Part shown: positions 8,346 through 60,485 of the stretch, one piece after another | Layout: each line of letters opens with the position of its first letter | How positions within the stretch are numbered: position 1 is the first letter of the stretch | Source of the DNA: an uncultured Gammaproteobacteria bacterium | Lineage (GTDB): Bacteria > Patescibacteriota > Patescibacteriia > UBA9934 | DNA: 64,000 nt | NCBI GenBank assembly: GCA_964344415.1 | Contig: CAYFMS010000002.1 | Coordinates: forward strand, 64,142-128,141 | Direction: 5' to 3' | The notes under the pieces: generated by a model | Told to the model about the DNA's origin: nothing | What the model saw: the letters and a program-made list of their open reading frames with translations, nothing else | Database searches by the model: none | Program-made: the position numbers and the translations under genes

Positions 8346-9191
8346 ATGAAGGTATTAATTACGGGCGCCCATGGAAATCTCGGGCAGGATTTGATGCAGG
8401 TTTTTGAGCAGGCTGGTCATGAAGTGCTTGCGACAGATAAAGCGGATCTTGACATCACAAATCTTGTGGCAGTTCTCGATTATGTCCAGAATCAGAAGCC
8501 AGACCTGATTATAAATTCGGCTGCATATAATGCTGTCGATAATGTTGAGGATGATGAATACTATCCTCTTGCTTTCTCAATCAATGCTGGTGGGCCGAGG
8601 AATTTAGCAAATGCCGCGAAGCAGGAGAATATTCCTATCATTCATTTCAGCACGGATTATGTTTTTGACGGGGCGAAGAAGGAGGGGTATGCCGAGGATG
8701 ATGCCATGCATCCGATTTCAAAATATGGCCAGACAAAGGCGGCGGGTGAGCGTTTTGTTCGTGAAAGTGGCGCAAAGTACTATATTTGCCGGCTTTCAAA
8801 GATTTTTGGAAAACCCGGTAAGAGCGAGGTGTCTAAAAAGAGCTTTGTTCAGGTGATGCTCGATCTTGCTAAGGAAAAAGAGTATTTGGAAGTCGTTGAT
8901 GAAGAAATTGGAATGCCGACATATACGGCAGACATTGCCGCGGCGGTTTTGAAGCTTACGAGAGGGGATTTCGAGGCAGGTGTATATCATTTGGTAAATG
9001 AAGGTCCGGGAGTAACTTGGTTTGAATTTGCCAAGGAGATTTTTGAAATTGCGCAGGTAGATATTGAAATAAGGCCTGTACCTTCCTATGATCGGCCGGC
9101 TGATCGGCCAAAATTCGCCGAGCTGAAAAATACAAAATTCCCAAAATTACGCTCGCGCAAAGATGCACTGCGAGATTTCCTAAGCTCCTAA
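8346..9191 (+). CDS. rmlD: dTDP-4-dehydrorhamnose reductase
   Basis: N-terminal Rossmann 'MKVLITGAHGNLG', SDR fold, 281 aa, immediately after rmlC. Confidence 0.85.
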   Translation: MKVLITGAHGNLGQDLMQVFEQAGHEVLATDKADLDITNLVAVLDYVQNQKPDLIINSAAYNAVDNVEDDEYYPLAFSINAGGPRNLANAAKQENIPIIHFSTDYVFDGAKKEGYAEDDAMHPISKYGQTKAAGERFVRESGAKYYICRLSKIFGKPGKSEVSKKSFVQVMLDLAKEKEYLEVVDEEIGMPTYTADIAAAVLKLTRGDFEAGVYHLVNEGPGVTWFEFAKEIFEIAQVDIEIRPVPSYDRPADRPKFAELKNTKFPKLRSRKDALRDFLSS

Positions 9192-9225
9192 GTCCGACTT
9201 AAATCAATGGTTTTAAGTCCGATTT
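9189..9225. repeat. pair of AAGTC(C)GACTT palindromes (13-bp TAAGTCCGACTTA and degenerate AAGTCCGATTT), centres 25 bp apart
   Basis: Read directly; same motif and spacing as the pair at 9583-9620. Confidence 0.7.
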
Positions 9226-9235
9226 AGATCATAAA

Positions 9236-9262
9236 TAAAAAAAACTCCCGACGGGCGGGAGT
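9236..9262 (-). terminator. rho-independent terminator for the small minus-strand gene
   Basis: On the minus strand: CTCCCG-CCCGT-CGGGAG hairpin followed by T8. Confidence 0.6.
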
Positions 9263-9582: not shown

Positions 9583-9620
9583 TTAAGTCCGACTTAAAAC
9601 AGCAGATTAAAGTCGGACTT
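9583..9620. promoter_or_regulatory. pair of palindromes TTAAGTCCGACTTAA and AAGTCGGACTT, centres 25 bp apart, just upstream of the -35
   Basis: 15-bp perfect odd-centred palindrome plus an 11-bp palindrome; the position suggests an operator or activator site. Confidence 0.5.
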
Positions 9621-9631
9621 AATTTGTGGAT

Positions 9632-9658
9632 AAAAAAACCGCGCTTTGTTCAGCGCGG
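9632..9658 (-). terminator. rho-independent terminator for the 9685..10269 gene
   Basis: On the minus strand: CCGCGCT-GAACAA-AGCGCGG hairpin followed by T7. Confidence 0.55.
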
Positions 9659-9684: not shown

Positions 9685-10269
9685 TCACTTTTCGGGAAGT
9701 GACCTACCCTGATTCGTGATCTGTGGCCTGGGCACTTCCGATACCAGCCCCTCTTTCGACGGATCGAGCTGCGATGTGTCGATTTCGAGCTTCAGCCCGC
9801 CGCGGATGACTTCGAATCTCACTTGCTCGGATTCCGCATGGGTGTCCGAGGCTGATTCGAGAGAAAGCGCGCGTAGCCCATTCGCTTCGATGTATGTGGT
9901 GATGAACCACTCAATCATTTTCTTGTCTGCATCGATTGGAAAGCATTTGAGGAATACTCTGCCATGACCCTGTCGAATGACTTCGATAGTCCAGCTTGCG
10001 GCCTCGATCTCCGCCTCCACGATATCACCATCGATGGGGATGAACTCATGTACCGGCCTTGCAGAGCGCAATGTTTTTTCGGCAATCCCTCCGAACAGGA
10101 TGGGCAGGGTCATGATCAAGATGTCCCTGATTGATACGGTGCCTCCGGACATGATGAGTCTGGTAAGCAAAGCGCCGAAAAGTACAGAATAGATGCCAAT
10201 CTGTGCAAGTAACAGACACCAAAGCATTACCAACCTAGACTCTTCAATAAGTCGCATTTTCACCTCCAA
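9685..10269 (-). CDS. membrane protein, hypothetical (N-terminal 2-3 TM plus a soluble C-terminal domain; possibly DUF421/YetF-like); GC-rich relative to its neighbours
   Basis: 194 aa with a GC-rich third codon position, unlike the flanking genes. Confidence 0.45.
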   Translation of the reverse strand: MEVKMRLIEESRLVMLWCLLLAQIGIYSVLFGALLTRLIMSGGTVSIRDILIMTLPILFGGIAEKTLRSARPVHEFIPIDGDIVEAEIEAASWTIEVIRQGHGRVFLKCFPIDADKKMIEWFITTYIEANGLRALSLESASDTHAESEQVRFEVIRGGLKLEIDTSQLDPSKEGLVSEVPRPQITNQGRSLPEK

Positions 10270-28306: not shown

Positions 28307-29384
28307 AATGAAACATCATCACATATTGATGACAGGAGGAGGTACATTGGGACCTGTGACTCCGCTGCTTGGAATTATTGATGTATGGAAGGAGATGGAC
28401 GAACAAACGGAGTTTTCTTGGATTGTGACGCCTCGTGGAGTCGAGAAAGATCTCTTGCGATCGGAAGGAATGAGATTCCAAACGCTTTATGCTCCAAAAT
28501 TATCAAGGCATAAAAAATGGCAATGGATTGCTACGCCTTTTTTACTAACCGCGAGCGTGATGAGAGCGATGCAGATCTTGAGAAAAATACGGCCAAGCAT
28601 GGTATTTACGGCAGGGGGGTATGTAAGCGTACCTGTCGTGATTGCGGCGAAAATGCAAGGCATTCCCATTTGGGTGCATCAATTAGACTATCTTCCGGGG
28701 ATTGCAAATAAGGTGATGGCGCCATTTGCTACGCGTATTACAACGACATTTGAAAAGTCCGCTGAGAAATTTCCTGAATCTAAAACGGAAACGGTTGGCG
28801 CAGTGCTTCGTGCACGGCTGCGCATTTCGTCAAAGGAAACATTATTGCAAAAGTATGGCCTCGATCCTCAAAAAATGACGATACTGATTACTGGTGGGGG
28901 AACTGGCGCTGTGCAAATTAATGATGCGATGGAGGTGATAGCGAAAGAATTATCCCTGAAGGCAAATATTATTCACTTGACTGGGAAGGGAAAAATGACA
29001 AATGAATTGCAAGAAATAGCCCCGAATTATTGCGCGATTGAAATGGTGACGCATGAAATGCATGAATTATATTCATTGGCGGATATAGTTGTTTCGCGGG
29101 CTGGGCTCGGTACAATGATGGAGCTTGTTTCATATAAAAAGCCTGCTATTATCATTCCAATCAAGAATTCTCATCAGGAATTGAATGCAGCGGTTCTCGC
29201 CGAGGCGGGGGCGGCTCATGTCATTTGGGATATGAATCCACAGGTTTTAAAGCAGGCAATCTCGAAAATGATCGATGATGACGATCGTCGCAATGCATAT
29301 GCGCGGGCGATTGGCGAAGTTATGGATCGGTCCGGTGCAGAGAAAATCGCGAAAGAAGCGATTGATGTTTTGGGTGGGGGGTAG
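28293..29384 (+). CDS. murG: undecaprenyldiphospho-muramoylpentapeptide beta-N-acetylglucosaminyltransferase
   Basis: 'MTGGGTLGPVTP' and 'ILITGGGTGA'; GT28 fold. Confidence 0.9.
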   Translation: MGMRKMKHHHILMTGGGTLGPVTPLLGIIDVWKEMDEQTEFSWIVTPRGVEKDLLRSEGMRFQTLYAPKLSRHKKWQWIATPFLLTASVMRAMQILRKIRPSMVFTAGGYVSVPVVIAAKMQGIPIWVHQLDYLPGIANKVMAPFATRITTTFEKSAEKFPESKTETVGAVLRARLRISSKETLLQKYGLDPQKMTILITGGGTGAVQINDAMEVIAKELSLKANIIHLTGKGKMTNELQEIAPNYCAIEMVTHEMHELYSLADIVVSRAGLGTMMELVSYKKPAIIIPIKNSHQELNAAVLAEAGAAHVIWDMNPQVLKQAISKMIDDDDRRNAYARAIGEVMDRSGAEKIAKEAIDVLGGG

Positions 29385-29394
29385 GTTACCGTTA

Positions 29395-29520
29395 CGAATT
29401 TACGGATAATACTGATATGCGGATTGACGGCTACGAAGTAAGTAGTCGTATTGCTTAGATCCTTCGACAGGCTCAGGATTTCGAATGGGTACACGAAGTC
29501 CGACTTTCTTTTCGTCATAC
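29395..29520. repeat. mosaic intergenic repeat, inverted orientation (modules G, C and D and a single AAGTCCGACTT copy)
   Basis: 'cttagatccttcgacaggctcaggatttcgaa' is the reverse complement of module C at 59085 and 60335. 'cgaagtaagtagtcg' is the reverse complement of module G. Confidence 0.7.
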
Positions 29521-30083: not shown

Positions 30084-30159
30084 ACGCCGGTAGCTCAGTT
30101 GGTAGAGCGAGGGCCTTTTAAGCCCGAGGTCGTGGGTTCGAGCCCCACTCGGCGTACCA
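30084..30159 (+). tRNA. tRNA-Lys (anticodon UUU), CCA encoded
   Basis: Cloverleaf folded by hand: acceptor ACGCCGG/TCGGCGT, 'GCTCAGTTGGTAGAGC' D-arm, anticodon loop CTTTTAA, T-arm GTGGGTTCGAGCCCCAC. Confidence 0.85.
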
Positions 30160-30162
30160 AAA

Positions 30163-30190
30163 AATAGTCAGTTTTCTGGCTATTTTTTCT
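30163..30190 (+). terminator. terminator after tRNA-Lys
   Basis: 'tagtcagttttctggcta' hairpin followed by T6. Confidence 0.5.
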
Positions 30191-30257
30191 TGTTGAAGTG
30201 ATTATTATGTTGAATGCATGATTTTATCCACAGATATTTGACAAAAAAATGTGTTCA

Positions 30258-30374
30258 ATGCAAAGTGTAAAGAGTATGCAAAACATTGCACGCCTCATTA
30301 CAAAGAATATTGCGATGGCAATTGTCTGCCTCGTGGTTGGCTTTGTGCTCATTATTGGATTGAGCGGCGTGTAA
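30258..30374 (+). CDS. 38-aa hydrophobic peptide (type I toxin-like), speculative
   Basis: 'MQSVKSMQNIARLITKNIAMAIVCLVVGFVLIIGLSGV'; own terminator at 30400-30430; not in the ORF track because it is under 60 aa. Confidence 0.25.
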   Translation: MQSVKSMQNIARLITKNIAMAIVCLVVGFVLIIGLSGV

Positions 30375-30399
30375 GATTTTGTTAAAACATCAAACAAAA

Positions 30400-30430
30400 C
30401 AACGCTGCTCAGTGATGAGTGGCGTTTTTT
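30400..30430 (+). terminator. rho-independent terminator
   Basis: 'cgctgctcagtgatgagtggcg' followed by T6. Confidence 0.5.
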
Positions 30431-30475
30431 CTTGAGCTGAAGAAGGAAAGGAGTAGCATCTTCTTCAGCTCAAGA
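30428..30475 (+). repeat. hairpin repeat copy 1 (15-bp perfect stem, 14-nt loop 'gaaaggagtagcat')
   Basis: 'cttgagctgaagaag-gaaaggagtagcat-cttcttcagctcaag'. Confidence 0.8.
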
Positions 30476-30730
30476 AGCTGAGGCTCAAAGGGGGAAGCAT
30501 GTCCAAAGTGACTCTCGGAAAGGATACTGTGAATAGTGGTGTAACTACTATTCGTGGTAGTAACCGGTCCAAGCGGCGCAATGACTCGATCGATCAGGTT
30601 GATGTTCCGCGCCCGTCTCTGCAAATCGTACCTCGCGCTGATTGCGACAAAAACAATCGGCATCCTTGGTGGCGATAGCAGAACATCCCGTCCGACTGCA
30701 TTCATCTGTAGTCGGACGGAGAAATGTTTT

Positions 30731-30770
30731 CTAGATTGAAGAAGGAAAGGAGTAGCATCTTCTTCAGTCT
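30731..30770 (+). repeat. hairpin repeat copy 2 (13-bp stem with one G·U, identical loop)
   Basis: 'tagattgaagaag-gaaaggagtagcat-cttcttcagtcta'; shares a 31-bp identical core with copy 1. Confidence 0.8.
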
Positions 30771-30820
30771 ATGAAGACTGAAAAACGAAAATTCTGCCCG
30801 AAAAGGGCTTTGGAGGAATC

Positions 30821-31273
30821 ATGTGTGAAGGAAGGAATGAAGGTTATGCATCTGCGATCGATACGTTGAATCGGAGGCGGCTTCTGCCGGATTCTACTAT
30901 GGAATCTGAGCTGAGCCCCGACGAGGACACGGCGGAGCTCGAGCGAAGCATGCAGAGGGCACGCGATGTGGTTCGGGAAGCGAACCTCGACGACACGGGT
31001 CCGGAGATCGGAACGGATGCATGGCGTCTGCAGATGATGCGGAATCAAGAGCGCGCTCTCGACTGCCGTGTGGACGTCGACGATGCCGACGATGTCATCG
31101 TCCGAAGGACGGTGCCTGACGGTTCCGTGCAGGACATCGATCCACAAGTCGTCGCTGAAGATGCGGGAGTCATGTCTGATGAGCTCACCGACTTCGAGGA
31201 GGAACCTGAGTGGACAGACAACTTCGGTCGTCCGATGGGCGACGCTTCGATGTGGAGTAGTTTCCTGTCGTAA
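30821..31273 (+). CDS. acidic hypothetical protein (150 aa) in a GC-rich insert next to tRNA-Lys
   Basis: RBS GGAGGA; strongly GC-rich third codon positions unlike the host genes; terminator downstream. The antisense ORF 30764..31318 is rejected. Confidence 0.55.
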   Translation: MCEGRNEGYASAIDTLNRRRLLPDSTMESELSPDEDTAELERSMQRARDVVREANLDDTGPEIGTDAWRLQMMRNQERALDCRVDVDDADDVIVRRTVPDGSVQDIDPQVVAEDAGVMSDELTDFEEEPEWTDNFGRPMGDASMWSSFLS

Positions 31274-31295
31274 TTCGCTGAGCACCGACGCCGAT

Positions 31296-31330
31296 ACGCG
31301 CCCGCAATGCAAGAGCATCGCGGGCTTTTT
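31296..31330 (+). terminator. rho-independent terminator
   Basis: GCCCGC-aatgcaagagcatc-GCGGGC followed by T6. Confidence 0.6.
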
Positions 31331-44563: not shown

Positions 44564-45330
44564 TACATCAATTAACAAAGATTGGTTTCGGTGAGAGCGA
44601 GGGGAAATGCTATCTTGCTCTTCTTCAATTTGGATCAGCGACCGTGAGGCAGGTTTCACTTACGACGGGACTTTCTCGGTCAACAGTGCATAGAAAATTC
44701 GAGGATTTAATGCGCAAAGGCGTCATCATGAAGCAAGGGGAGGGCGAAGATGAACAGCGATTCATTGCCGAGCCTCCGGAGCGGTTGCAGTCGCTGATTC
44801 ATCATCAGATTCAGGAGCTTGAATCGCGCAGGCGCATGGTTGACCGCATTCTTGGACGATTGCGAGCTATGCATAATACGGCTTCGGCAAGGCCAAAAGT
44901 TCGGTATATCGAAACGATTGAGGGACTGCGCATGGTGCAGAGACAATTCGAAGAAATGAAAGATGACATGATTCAATTAGTCGGCTATGACACCTTTCTT
45001 GAATTGCATCAAGCTCCCTATGCAGATGAGCATCAGGGGGAATTGGCGCAATCTGTAAGGAAGATTCGGTCTATTTTGATTACAGATAAAGATATTTCTT
45101 TTCCAAGTACGCTTAATATCGAATATGTCATTTTGAGCCCAGAATCTATGCCGGCAACCGGTGAAATGTCTGTTTGCGGAAATCGATTATTGCTCTTTTC
45201 ATATATTTCAGGACTTGCAGCTGTTGAAATTACATCTGCGTCTATTGCTGAAACAGCTCGATTGACGCTCGAGCTTGCTTGGCAGAGAGCAAAAGAGTTG
45301 GGAGAGTATAAGAAAAATCGGCCCAGCTAG
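44551..45330 (+). CDS. TrmB-family transcriptional regulator
   Basis: N-terminal wHTH 'FGESEGKCYLALLQFGSATVRQVSLTTGLSRSTVHRKFEDLMRKG'. Confidence 0.65.
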   Translation: MDELIHQLTKIGFGESEGKCYLALLQFGSATVRQVSLTTGLSRSTVHRKFEDLMRKGVIMKQGEGEDEQRFIAEPPERLQSLIHHQIQELESRRRMVDRILGRLRAMHNTASARPKVRYIETIEGLRMVQRQFEEMKDDMIQLVGYDTFLELHQAPYADEHQGELAQSVRKIRSILITDKDISFPSTLNIEYVILSPESMPATGEMSVCGNRLLLFSYISGLAAVEITSASIAETARLTLELAWQRAKELGEYKKNRPS

Positions 45331-45361
45331 GTAGCGGGGCCGATTTAGTCGGCGATGAGTT

Positions 45362-45937
45362 CTAGGATTCGACGTTGAAGCTGTCTTCTTCGTCGACGTC
45401 CATGCCCCAGTACTTGCAACTGGGGCGGAAATTCACACCGCGCTTGTGCTTGGCCCACTGGGGGCCACGGAAGTCGCGGGTGCGGTCACGTCGGCGAGCG
45501 CGCAGCTTCTCGGCAGGGACCAAGTCCCAGCCGAGCCACAGGGTCCCGTCGAACTGCCGGAAGGCGGCTCGAGTGACACCGTAGTCTCCGTAGAGACGTG
45601 CCTCTCGGACGAGGGAATGGATCTTCGGATGCTTCGCAGCCTCCAGCTCCATGCGCTCCTGCAACGCGTACGGATCATACGCCTCGCCGTCGACCTCGAC
45701 GACCGTCACGGACTCGCTGTCCGTATCGCTGAGGTCCGCCGGGAGCAGGTCGTCGGAATCCTCGACCTCATCGGTCTCCCACGGATTGACCGTGGCGAGC
45801 TCCTCGACATCTCGCCAGTCGCTCTTGTCGGCGAAGGCGACGCCCATGTTCTCGAGGACAAAATCCTCGTGACCCATGGGATTGATGGTCGTAACCGAGC
45901 CAGCCATGACGCTGGCAACAAAAGTGCACAAGTCCAA
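45362..45937 (-). CDS. acidic hypothetical protein (about 190 aa) in a GC-rich insert
   Basis: GC-rich third codon positions; TTG start with RBS AAGGAG; preceded (minus-sense upstream) by copy 1 of the 42-bp element. Confidence 0.5.
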   Translation of the reverse strand: MDLCTFVASVMAGSVTTINPMGHEDFVLENMGVAFADKSDWRDVEELATVNPWETDEVEDSDDLLPADLSDTDSESVTVVEVDGEAYDPYALQERMELEAAKHPKIHSLVREARLYGDYGVTRAAFRQFDGTLWLGWDLVPAEKLRARRRDRTRDFRGPQWAKHKRGVNFRPSCKYWGMDVDEEDSFNVES

Positions 45938-45974
45938 TTCGCTCTCCTTGATTGAATGCGGCCTTTGGCCGCGG

Positions 45975-46016
45975 GTTGAAGTTTCATCTCAGCGCACAGA
46001 ATGCGCTAGGAGAAAC
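45975..46016. repeat. 42-bp element copy 1 ('gttgaagtttcatctcagcgcacagaatgcgctaggagaaac')
   Basis: Identical to 46721-46762. Contains the hairpin AGCGCA-cagaa-TGCGCT and, on the minus strand, 'ATGAAACTTCAAC'. Confidence 0.9.
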
Positions 46017-46067
46017 CCCGGACATGCACCATGTGATGCAGTCCGGGAAGTTCGGCATCGAAGTCGT

Positions 46068-46703
46068 CTACTTCTTTGCCTGTTCGATGCGCCGCTGTTC
46101 TTGTGAGACTGCGGCATGGATCCTGCCGTCACCCAAGGACTTGTGCACATTCTTCGCTGCCATCAGCTGTGCGAATGTGAGTCCATTGAGTCCTTTTAGA
46201 CGCGCACCCTCCAGATTTGCATCCTTCAGATTCGCACCCTCCAGATCCGCACCAAACAGATTTGCGCCCTCAAGATTTGCACCTTTCAGATTCGTACCCT
46301 CCAGAACCGCACCGTCGAGATTTGCACCCATCAGATTCGTACCCTCCAGATCCGCACCAAGCAGAAACACACCGCTCAGTTCCGTACCCGCCAGAATTGT
46401 ATACGCCAGATTTGCATCCTCCAGATTCGCACAAAGCAGAAACGCACCCTCGAGATTTGCATCCTTCAGATTCGCATCCTTCAGACGCGCAGCCATCAGA
46501 CCCGCACCCATCAGATTCGCGCCCATCAGATTTGCGCCCATCAGATTTGCGCACCTCAGATGCGCACCCTCCAGATTCGCACCCATCAGATTCGCATCCG
46601 CCAGATTGATCACTGCAGATGGGTGTTCTTCTCGCCACGCATTGAAGGATTTGACCCCTTCTTCACCTTCACGCAACATCTCCAGCAATTCTTCCTTGGT
46701 CAT
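46068..46703 (-). CDS. pentapeptide-repeat protein
   Basis: About 30 tandem A(D/N)LxG-type pentapeptides ('ANLMGANLEGAHLRCANLMGANL...'); start 'MTKEEL' with RBS GGAGGAGG; GC-rich. Confidence 0.8.
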   Translation of the reverse strand: MTKEELLEMLREGEEGVKSFNAWREEHPSAVINLADANLMGANLEGAHLRCANLMGANLMGANLMGAGLMAARLKDANLKDANLEGAFLLCANLEDANLAYTILAGTELSGVFLLGADLEGTNLMGANLDGAVLEGTNLKGANLEGANLFGADLEGANLKDANLEGARLKGLNGLTFAQLMAAKNVHKSLGDGRIHAAVSQEQRRIEQAKK

Positions 46704-46720
46704 TAAGACCTCCTCCGTAT

Positions 46721-46762
46721 GTTGAAGTTTCATCTCAGCGCACAGAATGCGCTAGGAGAAAC
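46721..46762. repeat. 42-bp element copy 2
   Basis: Identical to 45975-46016; lies immediately upstream (minus sense) of the pentapeptide-repeat gene. Confidence 0.9.
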
Positions 46763-47385
46763 TCCAATCTATAACATCATCTGAGGGTGAGCTTGTATGC
46801 TCGTATGCATACGGCTAGCAGTGACGTAGATACGTATGCCAGCAAGAATCCCTGGCATGTGCCGCCAGTCAGCCGGAGCCGAGTGATGGCACTTGGAATT
46901 CAATAAGCTTATATCACCCAAAAGCGATATATCCTCCATACCTCCCGAGAGGGCTGCATGGAAACTCTCTCCCCCAGATGATGTAATAGATCAGCTGCTT
47001 TTAGCAGACGTACAAATGTAGCAAAAAATGGGCCTTTTGTCAAGGTGTCGTGAAGATTTTTTGGCTAATATTGGGGAATTTATAAAAGTAAGTAAAGCGA
47101 GTAAAGTTAGAAAAGTGAGTAAATAGGGCAGGTAAATCCAGTTTGGGATTACCCTTGTTTGAAATCCCAGCCTACGAGCTGGGATCCACTCGACAAACAG
47201 GGGATTCTCCGCCTTCGCTCGGCAGAGCTACGTCGGGCAAGCAAGGCCGGAATGACGGAAGACAAACTCCTTAAACTCTGTAAACTCATTTAAACTCTGA
47301 GCGAGTGCGCCCTCCTAACCTCCCTAACTTTACTCGCTTTTCTAACTTTTCCACCCCCTAAACCCTATTTTGCTATAATCCTCAT
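46763..47385. repeat. 623-bp non-coding region, GC-rich then mosaic repeat modules (long imperfect inverted repeat around a nested hairpin; modules E, D and F)
   Basis: 'gtaaagcgagtaaagttagaaaag' at 47097 pairs with 'cttttctaactttactcgctt' at 47325. Nested hairpin 'cccttgtttg-aaa-tcccagc-ctacga-gctggga-...-caaacagggg' at 47150-47215. Confidence 0.7.
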
Positions 47386-48207
47386 ATGAAAATTATTGGT
47401 CACAAAAAGCAGCGAATGTATCTTGAGAATGTCATGGACAATGATGCTCTTCATCATGCCTATCTTTTTTCTGGGCCATCTGAGACTGGCAAGAAAACGA
47501 TTGCCTTGGAAATATCTGCAAAATTATTAGGTGTTGATCACCCGAATCAAAGCGTGAATTTCCGCATGATTCAACCTGAAATTGATAAAAAAACAGGACA
47601 GAAAAAATCGTCAATTACTATTTCGCAGATTCAGGATATTCAAACGCTCACATCATCGGGTGGAATTGGATCGGGAAAAAGGATCGTCATTATCGATGAT
47701 GCGCATACAATGACGACGGCCGCGCAGAATGCTCTATTGAAAACGCTCGAAGAGCCATCGGCGAATACACATTTCTTTCTTATTGTGATTGATGATTCAA
47801 AATTGTTACCAACCATACATTCTCGTGCAATGAATTTGCATTTTGGTCTTGTCCCGCACAGCGAATACCCAGATGATTTGAAAGAAGTGTTTACAAAGCA
47901 ATCAGATGAACTGCGCGCGATTATTCATGGTCGCCCAGGAATGGTCATCGATCTGCAGTCAGGACATGATATGATGATTGAGAATGTACAGCGCATTGTT
48001 GATATTCGGTCAGCAAGGCCACATGAGCGAATGATGGCAGCGGAAAAAATGGCAAAAAGCTCCGCTGTAGAAATCGAACATTTCCTTCTAGACTACCTGT
48101 CAATCGCACGGTCAAAAGGGGAAGATATTGAACATGTTCTTACAGCGATGCAGTTACTTAAAATGAATGTAAATAAAACATTAGTCCTTGAAAAAGCAAT
48201 TTTATGA
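47386..48207 (+). CDS. holB: DNA polymerase III subunit delta'
   Basis: 'HAYLFSGPSETGKKTIA' AAA+ clamp-loader Walker A; 273 aa. Confidence 0.8.
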   Translation: MKIIGHKKQRMYLENVMDNDALHHAYLFSGPSETGKKTIALEISAKLLGVDHPNQSVNFRMIQPEIDKKTGQKKSSITISQIQDIQTLTSSGGIGSGKRIVIIDDAHTMTTAAQNALLKTLEEPSANTHFFLIVIDDSKLLPTIHSRAMNLHFGLVPHSEYPDDLKEVFTKQSDELRAIIHGRPGMVIDLQSGHDMMIENVQRIVDIRSARPHERMMAAEKMAKSSAVEIEHFLLDYLSIARSKGEDIEHVLTAMQLLKMNVNKTLVLEKAIL

Positions 48208-49427: not shown

Positions 49428-49970
49428 ATGTCAATAGTAAATGAAGCAGGGCCACAATTTGATAAATCAATAGATCACCTCGCGCAGGAATTGCGAGGAT
49501 TGCGTACCGGAAGGGCGACTCCGACACTTGTCGAAGATCTTCAAATTGAATTATACGGTGCAATGCAGCCACTGAAGGCAGCGGCATCTATTTCAACTCC
49601 CGATGCCAGAACTATTCAGATCGAGCCATGGGATGCGAGTGCTGTTAAGGCAATTGAATCTGCCATTATGAAATCTGATATTGGAATTAATCCGAATGTT
49701 GATGGAAAGACGATTCGTTTGAACATGCCAATGATGACCGATGAAATGCGTCAAGAAATGGTAAAAAAATTAAAGGCTAAGATGGAAGATGCTCGCGTTT
49801 CAATCCGTCGTGTACGTGAGGACGTGAAGAAAAAGATTGAGGGACAAGATGGAATAGGAGATGATGATAAGCATGCTCAATTAGATGAGCTTGAAAAGAC
49901 TGTTAAGCAGTACAATGAACAAATTGATGGGTTGGGCAAAAAGAAAGAAGAAGAGATCACAACTATTTAG
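49428..49970 (+). CDS. frr: ribosome recycling factor
   Basis: 'LRTGRATPTLVEDLQIELYG' and 'AIMKSDIGINPNVDGKTIRLNMP'; 180 aa. Confidence 0.9.
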   Translation: MSIVNEAGPQFDKSIDHLAQELRGLRTGRATPTLVEDLQIELYGAMQPLKAAASISTPDARTIQIEPWDASAVKAIESAIMKSDIGINPNVDGKTIRLNMPMMTDEMRQEMVKKLKAKMEDARVSIRRVREDVKKKIEGQDGIGDDDKHAQLDELEKTVKQYNEQIDGLGKKKEEEITTI

Positions 49971-50088
49971 TCGCTTGTGAGTTAGCGATCTTTGTCCTCG
50001 GTTCTCCGGTCCTCGACACCGTACCTTTCAGTACGGCTTACTCCGGTCCTCGTACCTCGAACAAATCTCATCTAACTCACTGCGCGAC
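49970..50088. repeat. 119-bp TIR-bounded intergenic element, copy A1
   Basis: Left end 'gtcgcttgtgagttag', right end 'ctaactcactgcgcgac' (inverted), internal hairpin 'ccgtacctttcagtacgg'. It starts at the G of the frr TAG stop. Confidence 0.85.
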
Positions 50089-50285
50089 CGAGGTTCGTCA
50101 AAAACCATCCAGCATCCTGTGCGACTACGATTCTCCCATTTTGTCATCTCGAGCGAATGCGAGAGATCTCCTGCATATTGATTAGATTTCTCCATGCGGC
50201 CTTCGGCCTTAGTCGAAATGACGGATGGGAGCAATCTAACCCCTACACCCTAACCCCTACACCCTAAAACCCGTAACTACTCACT
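50089..50285. repeat. mosaic repeat modules (B, E and telomere-like 'cccctacaccctaacccctacaccctaaaaccc') running up to the glyQS start
   Basis: Shared modules with 51660-51903, 58930-59170 and 60208-60485. Confidence 0.7.
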
Positions 50286-51659
50286 ATGCCCGAAATTTCA
50301 ATGGAAAAAATCATGCGACTTTCTAAAGAACGGGGATTCATTTTCCCCGGTTCTGATATTTATGGAGGTCTTGCAAATTCATGGGATTATGGCCCGCTTG
50401 GGTCGCAAATGCGCATGAATGTAAAGAAAGATTGGTGGAAAAAAGTCGTTGAACAGCGGCGCGACATGTATGGACTCGACGGTGCGATCATGATGAATCC
50501 ACGCGTATGGGAAGCATCGGGGCATACATCATCATTTACTGATCCACTTGTCGAGGACAAGGTAACGCATAAGCGTTATCGTGCTGATCATCTCATCGAA
50601 GCAGCACTCCCAGATGTAAATGCTGATGGACTTTCTGTTGCTGAGCTCGATCGTTTGATTACAGAAAACAACATTAAAAGTCCAGATGGAAATGAATTGA
50701 CACCGGTCAAGACATTCAACTTAATGTTTGAAACAGGAATTGGAAAAACCGAGGGTGAAAAAGAGGCTGTGTATTTACGGCCTGAAACAGCGCAGGCCAT
50801 TTTTGTAAACTTCCAAAATGTGTTGAATGCGTCACGTGCACGGCTTCCATTTGGGGTTGCTCAGATTGGAAAGGCATTCCGCAATGAAATCACGCCGGGA
50901 AACTTCACATATCGCACGCTTGAATTCGAACAAATGGAAATTGAATATTTCTGTGAGGAATCAGAGTGGGAACAACATTTTGATGCATGGCAGAAATGGA
51001 TGGCTGATTGGGGTGAGAGCATTGGAATTGATGCTTCAAAACTGCATCCGGAAGACATTGATCCAGAAAAATTGGCGCATTATTCAAAACGCACCGTTGA
51101 CTTTGAATTTGAATATCCATTTGGAAAAAAGGAATTATGGGGTCTTGCATATCGTACGGATCATGATTTGAAAAATCATATGGAGGCGAGCGGAAAATCG
51201 CTTGAATATACAGATCCAAATGACAATGCTCGCAAAATCATTCCACATGTCATTGAACCATCGATGGGAGTTGATCGAACAATTCTTGCAATCATGCTCA
51301 GTGCATATGATGAGGAAGAAGTCGATGGCGATACTCGGGTTGTGATGCGATTTAAGCCTCATATTGCTCCATATCAAGTAGCGGTGCTTCCACTTTCAAA
51401 AAAGCCGGAATTGCAAAAGATCGCTCAGAAATTGAGTGATGATCTGTCTTCGGTGGCGAGAGTGACATATGATGAGACGCAATCCATCGGTAGGCGCTAT
51501 CGTCGTCAGGATGAAATTGGAACACCGTATTGTGTGACAATTGATTTTGACACCATCGATGACCAAGCGGTGACTATTCGTGACCGAGACACGATGCAGC
51601 AAGACCGCGTCAAAATCGATGAATTATCAGCGTATCTTGCACAGAAGTTATCAGGTTAG
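50286..51659 (+). CDS. glyQS: glycine--tRNA ligase (alpha2 dimeric GlyQS type)
   Basis: 'RGFIFPGSDIYGGLANSWDYGPLGSQMRMNVKKDWWKKVV' and class II motifs; 457 aa. Confidence 0.9.
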   Translation: MPEISMEKIMRLSKERGFIFPGSDIYGGLANSWDYGPLGSQMRMNVKKDWWKKVVEQRRDMYGLDGAIMMNPRVWEASGHTSSFTDPLVEDKVTHKRYRADHLIEAALPDVNADGLSVAELDRLITENNIKSPDGNELTPVKTFNLMFETGIGKTEGEKEAVYLRPETAQAIFVNFQNVLNASRARLPFGVAQIGKAFRNEITPGNFTYRTLEFEQMEIEYFCEESEWEQHFDAWQKWMADWGESIGIDASKLHPEDIDPEKLAHYSKRTVDFEFEYPFGKKELWGLAYRTDHDLKNHMEASGKSLEYTDPNDNARKIIPHVIEPSMGVDRTILAIMLSAYDEEEVDGDTRVVMRFKPHIAPYQVAVLPLSKKPELQKIAQKLSDDLSSVARVTYDETQSIGRRYRRQDEIGTPYCVTIDFDTIDDQAVTIRDRDTMQQDRVKIDELSAYLAQKLSG

Positions 51660-51903
51660 GACGGTATAAGTTTCATCTCTAATACTTATGGATCCCCTGC
51701 CTACCGGCAGGCAGGGATCCATCGCTGTCGTATTACGATGGATTCCGGCTCGGAGGCCGGAATGACGCGAAGCTCCTAAATCTCCTCGATCTCTTTTATC
51801 TCCTTCGCACCTAAATCCGTATATCTGTATTATCAGTACATCCGTAACGGTAACCCACTTACTATTTTCTACTAACTACTGACTGTTTATTATCGATTCA
51901 TGT
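51660..51903. repeat. mosaic intergenic repeat (hairpin 'ggatcccctgcctaccggcaggcagggatcc', modules E, D and G)
   Basis: 'cctaaatctcctcgatctcttttatctccttcgcacctaaatccgta' matches 60409-60450. Confidence 0.7.
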
Positions 51904-54773: not shown

Positions 54774-55060
54774 GTCGCTTGTCTGCTGGCGCACTTTGAA
54801 CTCCAATCATCGAATCTATCCTCATCGTACGTTTCAGTACGCCTGCGGTAGATTCTCGATTGTCATCCAAATTGCATCCAGCATCCTTCGCGACCTCGAC
54901 ACTGTGCCTTTCAGTTCGGCTTACTCCGGTTCCAAGTTAAGGTTGAACCTTGACTGCGACTCGGAATAGGTTCAACCTTTCTATGCTCACTGCGCGACCG
55001 AGGTTCATCCAATATCCTGCGCGACTTATCGACTACTACTCACTACTATATAAAGTGCAC
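54774..55060. repeat. composite intergenic element A4 (two degenerate TIR units plus module B and a 'aaggttgaacctt...aggttcaacctt' palindrome pair)
   Basis: Starts 2 nt after the TAA stop with 'tagtcgcttgt'. Contains 'cgtacgtttcagtacg' and 'tgcctttcagttcggcttactccgg'. Ends with 'ctcactgcgcgac'. Confidence 0.75.
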
Positions 55061-56193: not shown

Positions 56194-58929
56194 ATGAGTA
56201 ATCCTACGATGAATTCCATTTTTGTGACCAATAGACATGGTCAGCGTGTTCCATTTGATCCGGCTCGTATTCGCAAGGCGCTTGAAGCGGCAGCGCGTGG
56301 TTATGAAGGGTATATTAGCCTCGACACAATCATGGAAGATTTTGACATCAATATCTATGATGGGATGTCGACAACGCAGATCAACAAAACGCTTACAATG
56401 GTGCTTGCGTCACGAATCGAACAGGTGCCTGAATATGGAAATATTGCAGCGCGCGTTATCTTGAATGATTTATCAAAAGATATCTTTGAGCGCATTAGTA
56501 GTGACCCGGATTATGAACAGCGTTATCGGGATGCATTCCGGAAGCAGCTATACCGCGCGGTAGAAGAAGAAAGACTCGACCCGCGACTTCTCATGTTTGA
56601 CATCGACCGTTTGTCGCAAGCGCTAAAACCGGAACGCGATAGTTATCTGACATATTTGAGTGTTTCAACATTGAAGGGACGGTATTTGTTGCATACGGCT
56701 GAAAAGGAAATTTTAGAGCTTCCACAATATTTTTGGATGCGTGTTGCCATGGGACTCTCTCTTGATGAGAAAGATCGGAATGAAAAAGCGATTGAGTTTT
56801 ATAATCTCATTTCAGAGCTTCGCTATGTGCCGTCTACTCCAACACTCTTACATTCTGGGACAACGCATCCGCAAATGAGCTCTTGCTACATTATGACAGT
56901 GAGTGACCGCTTGAATAATATTTTCAAGACCTTTGCTGATCAGGCTCAATTGTCAAAATGGTCTGGAGGTGTTGGTAGTGACTGGTCAAGCATTCGAGCG
57001 ACCGGCGCGCATATTCACACCATTAATACGCATAGTCAGGGCGTTATTCCATTCCTTAAGATTGTTGATTCCACAACGGCGGCAATTAATCGTAGTGGAA
57101 AGCGGCGTGGCGCAACATGCGTTTACCTTGAAGCTTGGCATCATGACATCGAAGATTTCTTAGAGCTGCGAAAGAATACGGGTGATGAACGTCGACGTAC
57201 GCATGACATCAGCACAGCGAACTGGATTCCTGACCTTTTCATGAAGCGTGTCATTGCGAATCAAGAATGGACATTATTCTCTCCAGATGAAGCGCCTGAT
57301 TTGCATGAATTGTACGGGCAAGAATTTGAAAAGCGATACGAGGAATATGAACAGAAGGCAGATCGCGGTGAAATCCGATTGTTCAAGCGCATGCCCGCAA
57401 TGGATTTATGGCGCAAAATGCTCACCATGATTTTCTCAACGGGGCATCCTTGGATCACATTCAAAGATCCTTGCAATGTGCGATCGCCTCAGGATCATGT
57501 TGGCGTTGTACGTAGTTCAAATCTCTGCACGGAAATCACATTGAATACTTCAGAAGATGAAACAGCGGTTTGTAATCTTGGTTCTGTAAATCTTTCTCGC
57601 CATGTCGTGAATGGGAAGGTTGATCGCGATATGCTGCGTCAAACGGTGCTCATTGCTATGCGAGCTCTCGATAATGTGATTGATTTGAATTTCTACCCAA
57701 CGGCGGAAGCGAAAAATTCGAATATGCGTCATCGTCCAGTCGGACTTGGAATCATGGGTGTTCAGGATGCGCTGATTAAGCTCGGTATGCACTTTGATAG
57801 CGATGTTGCTGTTCAATTCTCTGATGAGCTGCAGGAATACATTTCTTATTATGCAATTATGGGTTCATCTATGCTTGCACGTGAAAAGGGGACATATTCT
57901 AGCTATCGAGGTTCAAAGTGGGATCGGGGCATTTTCCCAGTAGACACACTTACGCTTCTTGAGCAGGAGCGAGGTGAGGAAATTCAGGTTCCAAAAACGC
58001 AGTCTCTCGATTGGTCTGAAGTTCGTGATCATGTGAAGCGTTATGGAATACGAAACTCGAATACGATGGCGATTGCTCCAACGGCGACGATTGCAAATAT
58101 TTCGGGTTGCTTCCCAACGACAGAACCGATGTACAAGAATATGTATGTAAAGTCGAATCAGGCCGGGGAGTACACGATTATCAATACCTATCTTGTCGAT
58201 GATTTACGAGCGGTGAATAAGTGGAATATCGACATTATCAATAAAATCAAAATTAATGACGGAAATGTTCAGGGTATAGCGGATATTCCGGAAGAAATTC
58301 AGCAAAAATATAAAGGAGTATTCGAAATTGATCCAATATGGGTGATTCGTCACGCTTCGCGCCGTGGAAAATGGATTGATCAGAGTCAGTCAATTAACTT
58401 GTTCTCGACGAGTACTTCAGGAAAATTTTTCAGCGAGATGTACATTAATGCATGGAAACATGGATTGAAGACGACATACTATCTGCGAACGCTTGCTGCA
58501 TCACAGGTTGATCGCGCAACAGTTGATACAACAAGTGAAGGACAGAAATCAGATGCTACTTCGCAGCAGGCTGCTCAGCAGGTCCAACCGGAAACGATTC
58601 CAGTGACACTTCCAAATGTCCAAGTCCCTGAGCCGGTTCCTGCGAGTGCCATTCCTGCCGCATCGAGTCCTGCTCCGACAGTGGCGCAGCCAACTCCCGC
58701 CGCTCCACCGGTTGCTCCTCCAGTAGCTCCGCCTTCATTTGCTGCAGCGCCTCCACTTGCAGCGCAAGCAATGCATACCGCTCCTACATCTTCATCGAGT
58801 CCAATGTCGGTGACAATGCAGGGGGCGGGTCCAGGTGCAATGCATGTCGATGAAAAGGTTGAGGTGGAAGCGGTGAGTGTGCCGAAGTTGTGCAAGATTG
58901 AAGACCCAACCTGCGAAAGCTGTCAGTAG
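56194..58929 (+). CDS. nrdA: ribonucleoside-diphosphate reductase class Ia alpha subunit, with an unusual Pro/Ala-rich C-terminal extension
   Basis: N-terminal ATP-cone, catalytic 'SSNLCTEITL'. A tail of about 110 aa ('PVPASAIPAASSPAPTVAQPTPAAPPVAPPVAPPSFAAAPPLAAQ') ends in 'CKIEDPTCESCQ'. Confidence 0.9.
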   Translation: MSNPTMNSIFVTNRHGQRVPFDPARIRKALEAAARGYEGYISLDTIMEDFDINIYDGMSTTQINKTLTMVLASRIEQVPEYGNIAARVILNDLSKDIFERISSDPDYEQRYRDAFRKQLYRAVEEERLDPRLLMFDIDRLSQALKPERDSYLTYLSVSTLKGRYLLHTAEKEILELPQYFWMRVAMGLSLDEKDRNEKAIEFYNLISELRYVPSTPTLLHSGTTHPQMSSCYIMTVSDRLNNIFKTFADQAQLSKWSGGVGSDWSSIRATGAHIHTINTHSQGVIPFLKIVDSTTAAINRSGKRRGATCVYLEAWHHDIEDFLELRKNTGDERRRTHDISTANWIPDLFMKRVIANQEWTLFSPDEAPDLHELYGQEFEKRYEEYEQKADRGEIRLFKRMPAMDLWRKMLTMIFSTGHPWITFKDPCNVRSPQDHVGVVRSSNLCTEITLNTSEDETAVCNLGSVNLSRHVVNGKVDRDMLRQTVLIAMRALDNVIDLNFYPTAEAKNSNMRHRPVGLGIMGVQDALIKLGMHFDSDVAVQFSDELQEYISYYAIMGSSMLAREKGTYSSYRGSKWDRGIFPVDTLTLLEQERGEEIQVPKTQSLDWSEVRDHVKRYGIRNSNTMAIAPTATIANISGCFPTTEPMYKNMYVKSNQAGEYTIINTYLVDDLRAVNKWNIDIINKIKINDGNVQGIADIPEEIQQKYKGVFEIDPIWVIRHASRRGKWIDQSQSINLFSTSTSGKFFSEMYINAWKHGLKTTYYLRTLAASQVDRATVDTTSEGQKSDATSQQAAQQVQPETIPVTLPNVQVPEPVPASAIPAASSPAPTVAQPTPAAPPVAPPVAPPSFAAAPPLAAQAMHTAPTSSSSPMSVTMQGAGPGAMHVDEKVEVEAVSVPKLCKIEDPTCESCQ

Positions 58930-59047
58930 TTGCTTGTGAGTTAGCGATCTTTGTCCTCAGTTCTCTGGTCCTCGACACCGTACCTTTCAGTACGGCTTAC
59001 TCCGGTCCTCGAACTTCGAACAAATCTCATCTAACTCACTGCACAAC
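58929..59047. repeat. 119-bp TIR element, copy A2
   Basis: 'gttgcttgtgagttag ... ctaactcactgcacaac'. About 90% identical to A1 and begins 0 nt after the nrdA TAG. Confidence 0.85.
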
Positions 59048-59170
59048 TAAATCTCGTCCAAATTGCATCCAGTATCCGTTGTGAATATTCGAAATCCTGA
59101 GCCTGTCGAAGGATCTAAGTGATAAGACTACACCCTATCCCCTAAACCCTACACCCTAATAACCCATGCT
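59048..59170. repeat. mosaic modules B, C and F ('ccctatcccctaaaccctacaccctaataaccc') up to the nrdB start
   Basis: Module C 'ttcgaaatcctgagcctgtcgaaggatctaag' is shared with 60333 and, inverted, with 29455. Confidence 0.7.
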
Positions 59171-60207: not shown

Positions 60208-60327
60208 GTCGCTTGTGAGTTGGCGATCTTTCGCTTCAGTTTTCCGTTGCTCATTCACCGTACGTTCCAGTACGCCTCATTCCGCTACTCAAACTTCAAC
60301 GAAATATCATCCAACTCACTGCGCGAC
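60208..60327. repeat. 120-bp TIR element, copy A3 (more diverged)
   Basis: 'gtcgcttgtgagttgg ... ccaactcactgcgcgac', internal 'ccgtacgttccagtacg'; begins 2 nt after the nrdB TAG. Confidence 0.8.
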
Positions 60328-60485
60328 CTTGATCGAAATCCTGAGCCTGTCGAAGGATCTAAGCGACTTCGCTCGGGATGACGACCTACAACCTCACACA
60401 TCTCTCCAACCTCCTAAATCTCCGTTATCTCCTTCGCGCCTAAATCCGTAACGGCAACCCTAAACCCTAATAGCTAACTGTATCT
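60328..60485. repeat. mosaic modules C, E, D and F ('caaccctaaaccctaatagc') up to the xth start
   Basis: Modules shared with 51740-51860 and 59085. Confidence 0.7.

Follow-up and report, generated by a model that had tools for sequence, protein, structure and literature searches.

We analysed a stretch of 64,000 nucleotides of the metagenome contig CAYFMS010000002.1 (hereafter the window), and in it a GC-rich segment between a trmB-like regulator gene and holB. Two minus-strand genes were confirmed in this segment, one for an acidic 191-aa protein and one for a 211-aa pentapeptide-repeat protein (PRP), and each has a copy of a 42-bp hairpin element (E42) on its 5′ side. An earlier sequence-only reading had described the two genes and the repeat; its coordinates end at 46762, and it missed the promoter and the structured non-coding RNA gene, here named R1, which together (46767–47043) are the organising element of the locus.

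The mean GC content of the window is 0.437. In 500-bp bins it is 0.61 at 45501–46000, 0.54 at 46001–46500 and 0.51 at 46501–47000, and in 100-bp steps it climbs from 0.44 to 0.67 between 45200 and 45400 and comes back down by about 47000. GC at third codon positions (GC3) was compared with that of the 56 other open reading frames (ORFs) of the window (mean 0.405, standard deviation 0.068). This gave a GC3 of 0.80 for the acidic gene (z = 5.8) and of 0.54 for the PRP gene (z of about 2), so that the abrupt shift and foreign-looking composition claimed earlier are borne out. The minus-strand unit opposes nearly all neighboring genes, which are on the plus strand, and the cumulative GC skew of the plus strand rises across the window. 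A Pfam scan of window ORFs found no integrase, transposase, reverse transcriptase or Cas domain, in agreement with the sequence-only reading as regards integrases and transposases, and none was found beside the related loci described below.

The acidic gene (45362–45937, minus strand) begins with a TTG codon, preceded with a 6-nt gap by the ribosome-binding site AAGGAG (45944–45949); its leader (45938–45974) also holds the hairpin GCGGCC-AAA-GGCCGC (45958–45972). GC at its first, second and third codon positions is 0.66, 0.41 and 0.80, the pattern of a real high-GC gene. An overlapping plus-strand ORF of 169 aa (45446–45955) has values of 0.80, 0.42 and 0.67, an antisense pattern, and it is this ORF that the public gene call picks instead of the acidic gene. 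The PRP gene with its ribosome-binding site GGAGGAGG (46709–46716) spans 46068–46716 on the minus strand, and the site sits 5 nt before the ATG at 46703. The public call starts the protein at an ATG inside E42, which gives 221 aa. This ATG, in ATGAAACTTCAAC, had been noted earlier as a pseudo-start: it is present and in the PRP frame, but at the E42 copy before the acidic gene (copy B) it is out of frame with the acidic ORF. Translation from it was rejected for that reason, and also because it has no ribosome-binding site and opens an ORF of five codons in the related locus L011. As the public calls differ in this way, exact look-ups of the 211-aa and 191-aa sequences gave no match.

The product of the PRP gene matches the Pfam family Pentapeptide (PF00805) with 124.9 bits against a cut-off of 20.2 (E = 7.6e-37), and the DNA of the gene has a 15-nt periodicity across 46151–46660. 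The protein has a pI of 5.0. Its scores were 41.4 bits with the Qnr model NF033086 (cut-off 240), 20–44 bits with the Qnr subfamily models (cut-offs 425–500) and 51.8 bits with the MfpA model (cut-off 360); MfpA in the PDB was matched at only E = 3.9e-4, and among solved structures the protein is nearest to designed consensus PRPs and to PRPs of cyanobacteria. The fold is therefore certain, and judged by the curated cut-offs the protein is a generic PRP outside the Qnr and MfpA families. With these scores, nothing positive was found for the suggestion of DNA mimicry, anti-restriction or gyrase protection that had been attached to it.

The acidic protein has a pI of 4.5 and 21% Asp plus Glu, and is predicted to be mostly disordered. 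Its single-sequence AlphaFold2 model has a pLDDT of 42 and allows no reading of the fold, its family being too small for a deep alignment. No match was found in Pfam, PHROGs, PADLOC, NCBIfam or the PDB, nor by tblastn in phage and plasmid collections. An anti-defence role in the manner of Ocr or ArdA had been proposed for it; the strong acidity on which this was based stands, but there is no similarity to either protein in Pfam, PHROGs, NCBIfam or the PDB.

The RNA gene R1 and its promoter

The promoter at 47015–47043 (minus strand) is of the sigma-70 type with an extended −10 (TTGACA-17-TGcTACATT; score 10/12 plus the TG), and the 64 kb contain just one other promoter of this extended −10 kind. 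It is conserved, as TTGACAAAAG...TGCTA, in the related loci L003, L005, L006, L008, L009, L023 and L024. From its position it would drive R1 and the genes downstream, which are predicted to be co-transcribed with it. At the other end of the unit, a two-way intrinsic terminator (45315–45346; inverted repeat I9, AAATCGGCCC.../...GGGCCGATTT followed by Ts) shares its sequence with the final codons of the convergent trmB-like gene, and would end an operon of R1, PRP gene and acidic gene.

R1 lies at 46767–46991 on the minus strand (inverted repeat I2), with its core at 46777–46981; the closing stem is lengthened in this genome, with 25-nt arms at 46767–46791 and 46967–46991 that give an element of 225 nt. 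Its predicted fold has −136.9 kcal/mol (z = −7.9) on the minus strand, compared with −107.6 kcal/mol on the plus strand. Related loci were retrieved through a conserved leader 21-mer, a degenerate RNA motif and trmB homologues, and together with the window they make up 15 distinct loci (numbered with an L). A first alignment of 12 R1 sequences had 37 consensus pairs, 19 of them with compensatory changes. The covariance model found one copy per locus in all 15 loci, with 132 bits for the window (46777–46981, minus strand), and loci that had no part in building it also matched (L023 with 122 bits, L024 with 100 and L013 with 71). In the full set of 15 sequences, pairing holds in 95.5% of cells, and both sides have changed in 23 of the 37 pairs. 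The covariation is 0.504, compared with 0.174 for shuffles (0 of 500 reached the observed value) and at most 0.10 for slid controls.

Rfam 15 gave no match to R1, either at the gathering score (where the window yielded two tRNAs only) or, for 45300–47400 and the L008 locus, at E-values up to 10. Neither the R1 motif nor a 21-nt stretch of R1 was found in IMG/VR viral contigs, and full-text literature searches that combined CPR (Candidate Phyla Radiation), Patescibacteria or Uhrbacteria with GC-rich islands or with structured or non-coding RNA returned nothing relevant. Compared by eye, R1 to our knowledge does not fit SRP RNA, 6S RNA, RNase P RNA, tmRNA, group II intron domain V or several riboswitch cores. 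Its covariation identifies R1 as a real structured RNA family, and apparently an undescribed one.

An extra conserved structured segment of about 150–250 nt (GAUGUG.CG.GGAA.CGUAC-loop-GUACG...) was seen between the promoter and the R1 core in L008 (3830–4005, minus strand), L006 (6650–6900, minus strand) and L013 (about 5570–5700 when oriented). The window, L003, L005 and L023 lack it, and L019 has a gene of the kind called cargo below in its place. The segment may belong to R1 as a 5′ domain, or may be a separate, second RNA.

Cargo at the same site in related genomes

There are 14 homologues of the trmB-like protein, one of them named Candidatus Uhrbacteria, and these few matches place the lineage in a clade of the CPR, or Patescibacteria. 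CPR genomes are tiny and thought to be streamlined, and their accessory-gene variation is poorly known. The gene order GT4, trmB-like, minus-strand unit, holB, BNR, RRF, GlyRS is kept in L005, L006, L008, L009 and L024, and the order is conserved wherever flanks are visible. The gaps between the trmB-like gene and holB in L008 (477 bp) and L024 (430 bp) hold only the promoter, R1 and the terminator, showing that R1, rather than an empty gap, is the native occupant of the site. The empty site envisaged by the sequence-only reading thus exists in the sense that relatives have cargo-free sites, but these are occupied by the promoter and R1.

In 8 of the 15 loci there are extra genes on the R1 strand, inside the unit from promoter to terminator, which we call cargo. 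The cargo lies downstream of R1 in the window, L003/4/22, L005 and L023, upstream of it (between promoter and R1) in L006, L011 and L019, and on both sides in L009. Its GC3 was measured in seven loci and is 0.70–0.95 compared with 0.28–0.72 for the hosts, the PRP gene of the window with its intermediate value of 0.54 being the sole exception. Many cargo proteins are acidic. Searches with up to 12 of them against PHROGs, PADLOC, NCBIfam and Pfam gave nothing but generic PRP matches, and two cargo proteins besides the acidic one had no match by tblastn against phages. The site between the trmB-like gene and holB is therefore a flexible genomic island, with a fixed position and a variable content that includes cargo-free sites.

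The acidic gene belongs to a small family. A full HMMER search of 1.84 billion representative proteins returned one real match, P0122 from L003 (BLASTP 2e-10); a second match, P0121, is repeat-driven and its meaning is doubtful. A word-indexed search of 5.8 billion proteins returned no homologue. P0122 lies on short contigs adjoining holB, behind the same promoter and a homologous leader. L005 (615 aa) and L023 (185 aa) add two members with an invariant motif, bringing the family to four, including the window and L003. All four have a short hydrophobic N-terminus containing Cys, an acidic middle and the invariant R..[RK]G[PS]QWA[KT], of which the part RG[PS]QWA[KT] is basic and C-terminal. A family profile found nothing in the PDB or among IMG/VR viral contigs.

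The family was found only at the R1 locus, and this recurrence marks the acidic gene as a recurrent partner of R1 and no chance import. The earlier idea of a one-off acquisition between the trmB-like gene and holB fails on the same evidence: relatives have GC3-rich cargo at this locus, and in three genomes it includes a homologue of the acidic gene, without the PRP gene. The same gene is thus found at the same place in relatives, but in these also it is GC3-rich and so not of native composition.

We compared TrmB, R1 and acidic-protein identities among the four genomes. L003g and L023 share 74% identity in TrmB and 91% in R1, yet their acidic proteins match only at the motif, and the best match to the acidic protein of L003g is that of the more distant window. 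The relationships of the acidic proteins do not follow host phylogeny in these four genomes, which is indicative rather than firm at this number. This discordance between the cargo and its hosts indicates that genes have been replaced or exchanged from a pool and did not diverge in situ.

The high GC3 of the cargo is harder to account for. The family members have diverged almost beyond recognition, and neutral evolution in place should by then have moved their GC3 toward that of the host; simple recent transfer followed by drift to host composition is therefore inadequate. One candidate source is an unsampled GC-rich gene pool, given that islands of the present kind are mis-called by gene finders. 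For the window the public calls have the acidic ORF on the wrong strand and the PRP with the wrong start, so protein databases probably lack, or carry wrong annotations of, the GC-rich islands of low-GC CPR genomes. Other candidates are selection acting on the composition of the mRNA or DNA, mutation or gene conversion with a local bias, and a local bias from very strong transcription that opposes the flanking genes and is probably head-on to replication.

Several further features of these islands were observed. Within islands, short low-GC promoter segments similar to that of R1 (TTGACAAAAG...TATG.TA) stand before the second or third cargo gene (L004 at about 1695, L005 at about 4522 on the minus strand, and L023 between the 185-aa and 147-aa genes), which makes the islands mosaics of host-like promoters and GC-rich ORFs. 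A low-GC gene for a PaaX-like regulator lies between the R1 terminator and the trmB-like gene in L006 (5652–6194, plus strand) and L019 (892–1485, minus strand), so that insertions of native composition also occur at the site. In L005 the GC-rich island ends in a poly-C/poly-G run of about 80 nt (2385–2470; CCCCCGCCCCCCCCCCGCCGGGGGGCGCCCCGGGGGGGGGGGG...), which could be an assembly artefact or a low-complexity hairpin. L005 (GenBank CAYPYH010000004.1) is labelled "uncultured Gammaproteobacteria bacterium"; it has a CPR-type gene order, with the trmB-like gene and R1 as in Uhrbacteria-like contigs, and the label is probably wrong.

Elsewhere in the window, a second mini-island of similar design was found at 30160–31330, directly downstream of a tRNA-Lys gene (30084–30159). 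It has a promoter-like site TTGACAAAA at 30238 and three ORFs: one of 41 aa for a membrane protein, one of 59 aa, and an acidic one of 150 aa (30821–31273; GC 0.58, GC3 0.64, pI 4.05) that has no Pfam or PHROG match. Two copies of a hairpin repeat of about 40 nt (30438–30477 and 30737–30776, 90% identical) precede the 59-aa and 150-aa ORFs. On the minority strand, a 194-aa membrane ORFan at 9685–10269 (minus strand; GC3 0.61, z = 3.0; no Pfam match) adjoins a 55-nt repeat pair (9189–9243 and 9584–9638), and may be another small accessory insertion.

The E42 element and the PRP cassette

The 42-mer occurs exactly twice in the 64 kb (45975–46016 and 46721–46762) with up to three mismatches allowed, compared with 0 of 100 shuffles, confirming the identical hairpin element that had been reported 5′ of each gene. 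With one mismatch the repeat extends to 45 nt. Copy A (46721–46765, minus strand) lies between R1 and the ribosome-binding site of the PRP gene, 17 nt before the PRP start codon, and copy B (45975–46019, minus strand) is 37 nt before the start codon of the acidic gene. The element folds as an interrupted hairpin of 15 bp, with −17.0 kcal/mol (z = −5.2) on the gene-sense strand and −15.3 kcal/mol on the other.

Copy B is also the second half of a longer module that follows the PRP gene. The first half (46017–46067, minus strand) consists of a conserved GACTTCGATGCCGAACTT and then hairpin 1, CCCGGAC...GTCCGGG (46017–46047). The same module, which in the window reads from 46067 to 45975, was found in L011/L012, the closest relative of the window by TrmB identity (60%). 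There the stop codon of an unrelated GC-rich gene is followed by GACTTCGACACCGAACTT, the hairpin CCCGGAC...GTCCGGG and then GTTTCTCCTAGCGCA-loop-TGCGCTGAGATGAAACTTGAAC. Outside two apical parts the modules of the window and L011 are near-identical, compared with only 57–58% DNA identity for the trmB and GT4 genes. In L011 a wholly different sequence forms the upper stem of hairpin 1, with its pairing kept. The stems of E42 are identical in the two, but its loop has 5 nt in the window and 8 nt in L011. In both genomes the module begins at a stop codon, of the PRP gene and of the unrelated L011 gene, and its base is conserved while its top is variable. This pattern suggests selection on a folded single strand that would be recognised at its base.

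Hairpins of the TTCCCGG type were found only directly 3′ of cargo genes, in the window, L003, L009 (twice) and L011, and nowhere else in the approximately 180 kb examined. Similar modules of two hairpins, which begin (A)CTTCCCGGG, follow two genes of L009, and a single gene of L003 is followed by a TTCCCGGG hairpin. No Rfam family matched E42 (at the gathering score or at E-values up to 10), and its pattern was absent from IMG/VR viral contigs.

E42 had been taken for a leader shared by the two genes. It is not private to them, since in L011/L012 it is the second hairpin of the module after a different gene. Nor is it one of the common intergenic repeats of the host, which are different sequences. 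These host modules, of 100–300 nt, are repeated between plus-strand genes (29381–29486, 47084–47350, 49968–50290, 51779–51858, 54774–55024, 58927–59164 and 60208–60450); several of them close with a CTAACCCCTACACCCTAA-like run right in front of the following start codon, and they are unrelated to E42. The region upstream of holB, with inverted arms at 47084–47119 and 47315–47350, resembles a host intergenic module.

The PRP gene was absent from all the other recovered loci. Together with one copy of E42 it forms a 746-bp unit that is bracketed by the direct repeats of 42–45 bp, and the flanks are unrelated. A cassette-type event, one of the origins offered by the sequence-only reading, is supported by this arrangement as the best reading of the 746-bp unit.

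Explanations and comparison with known systems

On balance we favor, with moderate confidence, the explanation that the R1 transcription unit hosts a variable island of GC3-rich ORFans and that the PRP gene is a later cassette in it. R1 and its promoter are native, conserved between the trmB-like gene and holB in an Uhrbacteria-like CPR clade, and in about half of the loci GC3-rich ORFans would have been inserted within the R1 unit, in the interval from promoter to R1 or from R1 to terminator. As the cargo genes turn over between lineages, this points to a flexible island that uses the R1 promoter. The acidic gene would be the recurrent partner of R1 in a sub-clade that has downstream cargo. 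In the window a single minus-strand unit would run from the promoter (47043) through R1, E42, the PRP gene, hairpin 1 with E42 and the acidic gene to the terminator (45346–45315). The cassette, consisting of E42, ribosome-binding site, PRP gene and hairpin 1, would have entered later through recombination with an E42 already present between R1 and the acidic gene, leaving two identical copies. The element itself would act as RNA and form with hairpin 1 an intergenic two-hairpin module, which might serve the upstream cistron as a leaky 3′ end or stabiliser and the next one as a processing or 5′-stabilising structure. Identical copies of E42 could also supply the homology for gain and loss of cassettes without a dedicated recombinase.

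Several points weigh against this explanation. The sample of 15 loci is small, and E42 itself is known from two genomes only. Co-transcription, processing and terminator function are predictions from sequence, and a consensus terminator scan did not call hairpin 1 with GTTTCTCC. Neither a variant of the locus lacking the PRP gene nor a circular junction was observed, and the identity of the E42 copies could be due to gene conversion rather than to recent insertion. The module is 5′ of R1 in L011 but E42 is 3′ of R1 in the window, which takes at least one rearrangement. Lastly, a persistent GC3 of 0.8–0.95 in genomes with a GC3 of 0.3–0.4 goes beyond a simple flexible-island model. The locus offers a new RNA family supported by covariation, with a near-consensus promoter, kept beside holB across the clade. 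A hypervariable island exploiting the transcription unit of this RNA gene would be a testable route of accessory-gene variation in CPR bacteria, and its intergenic hairpin modules may both set RNA ends and mediate cassette exchange.

An integron-like cassette array is an improbable alternative. According to it E42, or the module, would be an attC-like single-stranded DNA site for a recombinase encoded elsewhere, with the R1 promoter in the role of Pc. It would account for the structured site with conserved base and variable top that starts at the stop codon of unrelated genes, for a mixed-composition set of ORFan genes behind a single strong promoter and for the bracketing of the PRP gene by direct repeats; integrase-less attC clusters are known. 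No tyrosine recombinase was found in the scanned window ORFs or beside any of the 15 loci, however, and E42 lacks RYYYAAC...GTTRRRY cores. Its paired ends read GTTTC...GAAAC on both strands with GTT outside, and its ends GTTGAAG and GAGAAAC do not fit attC cores, their order being opposite to that in attC; with the cores in the wrong arrangement, attC identity was rejected. In addition, several cargo genes have promoters of their own (L004, L005 and L023), cargo also lies upstream of R1, and the two E42 copies have 42–45 bp in common compared with about 7 bp after an integron crossover.

Comparably improbable in our estimate, and more far-reaching, is an undescribed platform of CPR bacteria for the capture and expression of gene cassettes. 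R1 and hairpin modules recognised by a protein would then recruit GC3-rich ORFans on either side, and express them, and active maintenance would keep the GC3 at 0.7–0.95 (0.3–0.7 in hosts), or an unsampled GC-rich pool would supply it, perhaps with genes tuned for expression in a high-GC partner organism or for interaction with one.

We give slightly less credence to the model of the sequence-only reading, in which a PRP and an Ocr/ArdA-like mimic form a two-gene module for anti-restriction, gyrase protection or anti-defence, recently acquired from a high-GC donor and co-regulated through a shared leader. Both proteins are acidic, the PRP fold is certain, the composition looks foreign, the element is common to both genes, and fast-evolving ORFans at a hypervariable site would fit genes of conflict. 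The PRP nevertheless falls far under the cut-offs for Qnr, MfpA and AlbG-type proteins, its nearest solved relatives being of consensus and cyanobacterial type, and the mostly disordered acidic protein has a basic C-terminal motif and is without a match in family, PDB, phage or plasmid collections. Its homologues occupy the same chromosomal locus in three other CPR genomes that lack the PRP gene there, so the pair is no co-travelling module.

It is very unlikely that E42 is a double-stranded DNA operator (AGCGCA-N5-TGCGCT) for the TrmB-like or another helix-turn-helix protein, with one copy per gene giving co-regulation. The half-sites form a perfect palindrome and a regulator gene adjoins, but the change in half-site spacing from 5 nt in the window to 8 nt in L011, with identical stems, does not suit a dimeric operator and led us to reject this identity. 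The element also lies downstream of the promoter, inside the predicted transcript, and the trmB-like gene is equally conserved at cargo-free sites that have no E42.

Still more remote is the idea of E42 as a solitary unit of CRISPR-repeat type (36 nt; GTTTC, hairpin, ATGAAAC) that would serve as a Cas6-type cleavage site or anti-CRISPR RNA decoy. Its length, palindrome and GTTTC/GAAAC ends presumably resemble those of many CRISPR repeats, and its stems are conserved in sequence while the loop varies. There are, however, only two copies, 746 bp apart, with no array in the 64 kb and no cas genes in the window or related loci, for which reason this identity was rejected; viral contigs had no match, and the single copy in L011 is fused to hairpin 1.

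An assembly chimera, in which GC-rich DNA of another organism would have been joined to a low-GC contig, might be suspected from the abrupt jump in composition and the metagenomic source, but was ruled out by the independent assembly described next and by the recurrence of the same architecture in at least eight other samples and assemblers, the junctions lying inside conserved features (the shared terminator, and R1 with its promoter). The 768-kb ENA metagenome contig k127_100043 (ERZ930061) encodes the trmB-like protein, as does an independent Logan contig of the same run. The Logan contig joins the trmB-like gene to the acidic gene, so this junction is not an assembler artefact, and it ends within the first 42-bp copy, as is expected at an exact repeat of such length.

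Among known systems, the favored explanation of a variable island in the R1 unit comes close to the flexible islands of marine bacteria linked to tRNA, tmRNA or rRNA genes, which occupy fixed sites beside stable-RNA genes. Like these, the R1 locus is a fixed site between core genes beside a stable-RNA gene, its cargo is lineage-specific, mostly ORFan and of atypical composition, the similarity of the cargo departs from host relatedness, and no integrase would be needed if exchange occurs through flank homology. It differs in that the cargo lies inside the promoter-to-terminator unit of the RNA itself, on either side of the RNA, with a GC3 above that of the host in each measured locus, with two-hairpin modules and with a new RNA family as its anchor.

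With integron arrays and integrase-less attC clusters the locus has in common one platform promoter, ORFs each followed by a structured site, ORFan cargo and a bracketed cassette, and it departs from integron arrays in having no IntI found, no attC cores, two hairpins, the long direct repeat and own promoters for some genes. The PRP resembles Qnr, MfpA and AlbG as an acidic pentapeptide-repeat protein of about 200 aa, but scores below their cut-offs, and its surroundings give no pointer to topoisomerases or antibiotics. The acidic protein is small, with a low pI, as are the mimics Ocr and ArdA; unlike them it is predicted to be mostly disordered, shows no similarity to any known family, is chromosomal, at one conserved CPR locus, and was not found in phage or plasmid collections. 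REP/BIME, Correia and RUP/BOX elements are short intergenic palindromic repeats that are co-transcribed with genes, affect mRNA ends or stability and give homology for rearrangements. E42 is likewise a short repeated palindrome between genes, but has only two copies in 64 kb, all known copies lie in one type of island, and its stem is conserved across genomes whose core genes share about 57% DNA identity.

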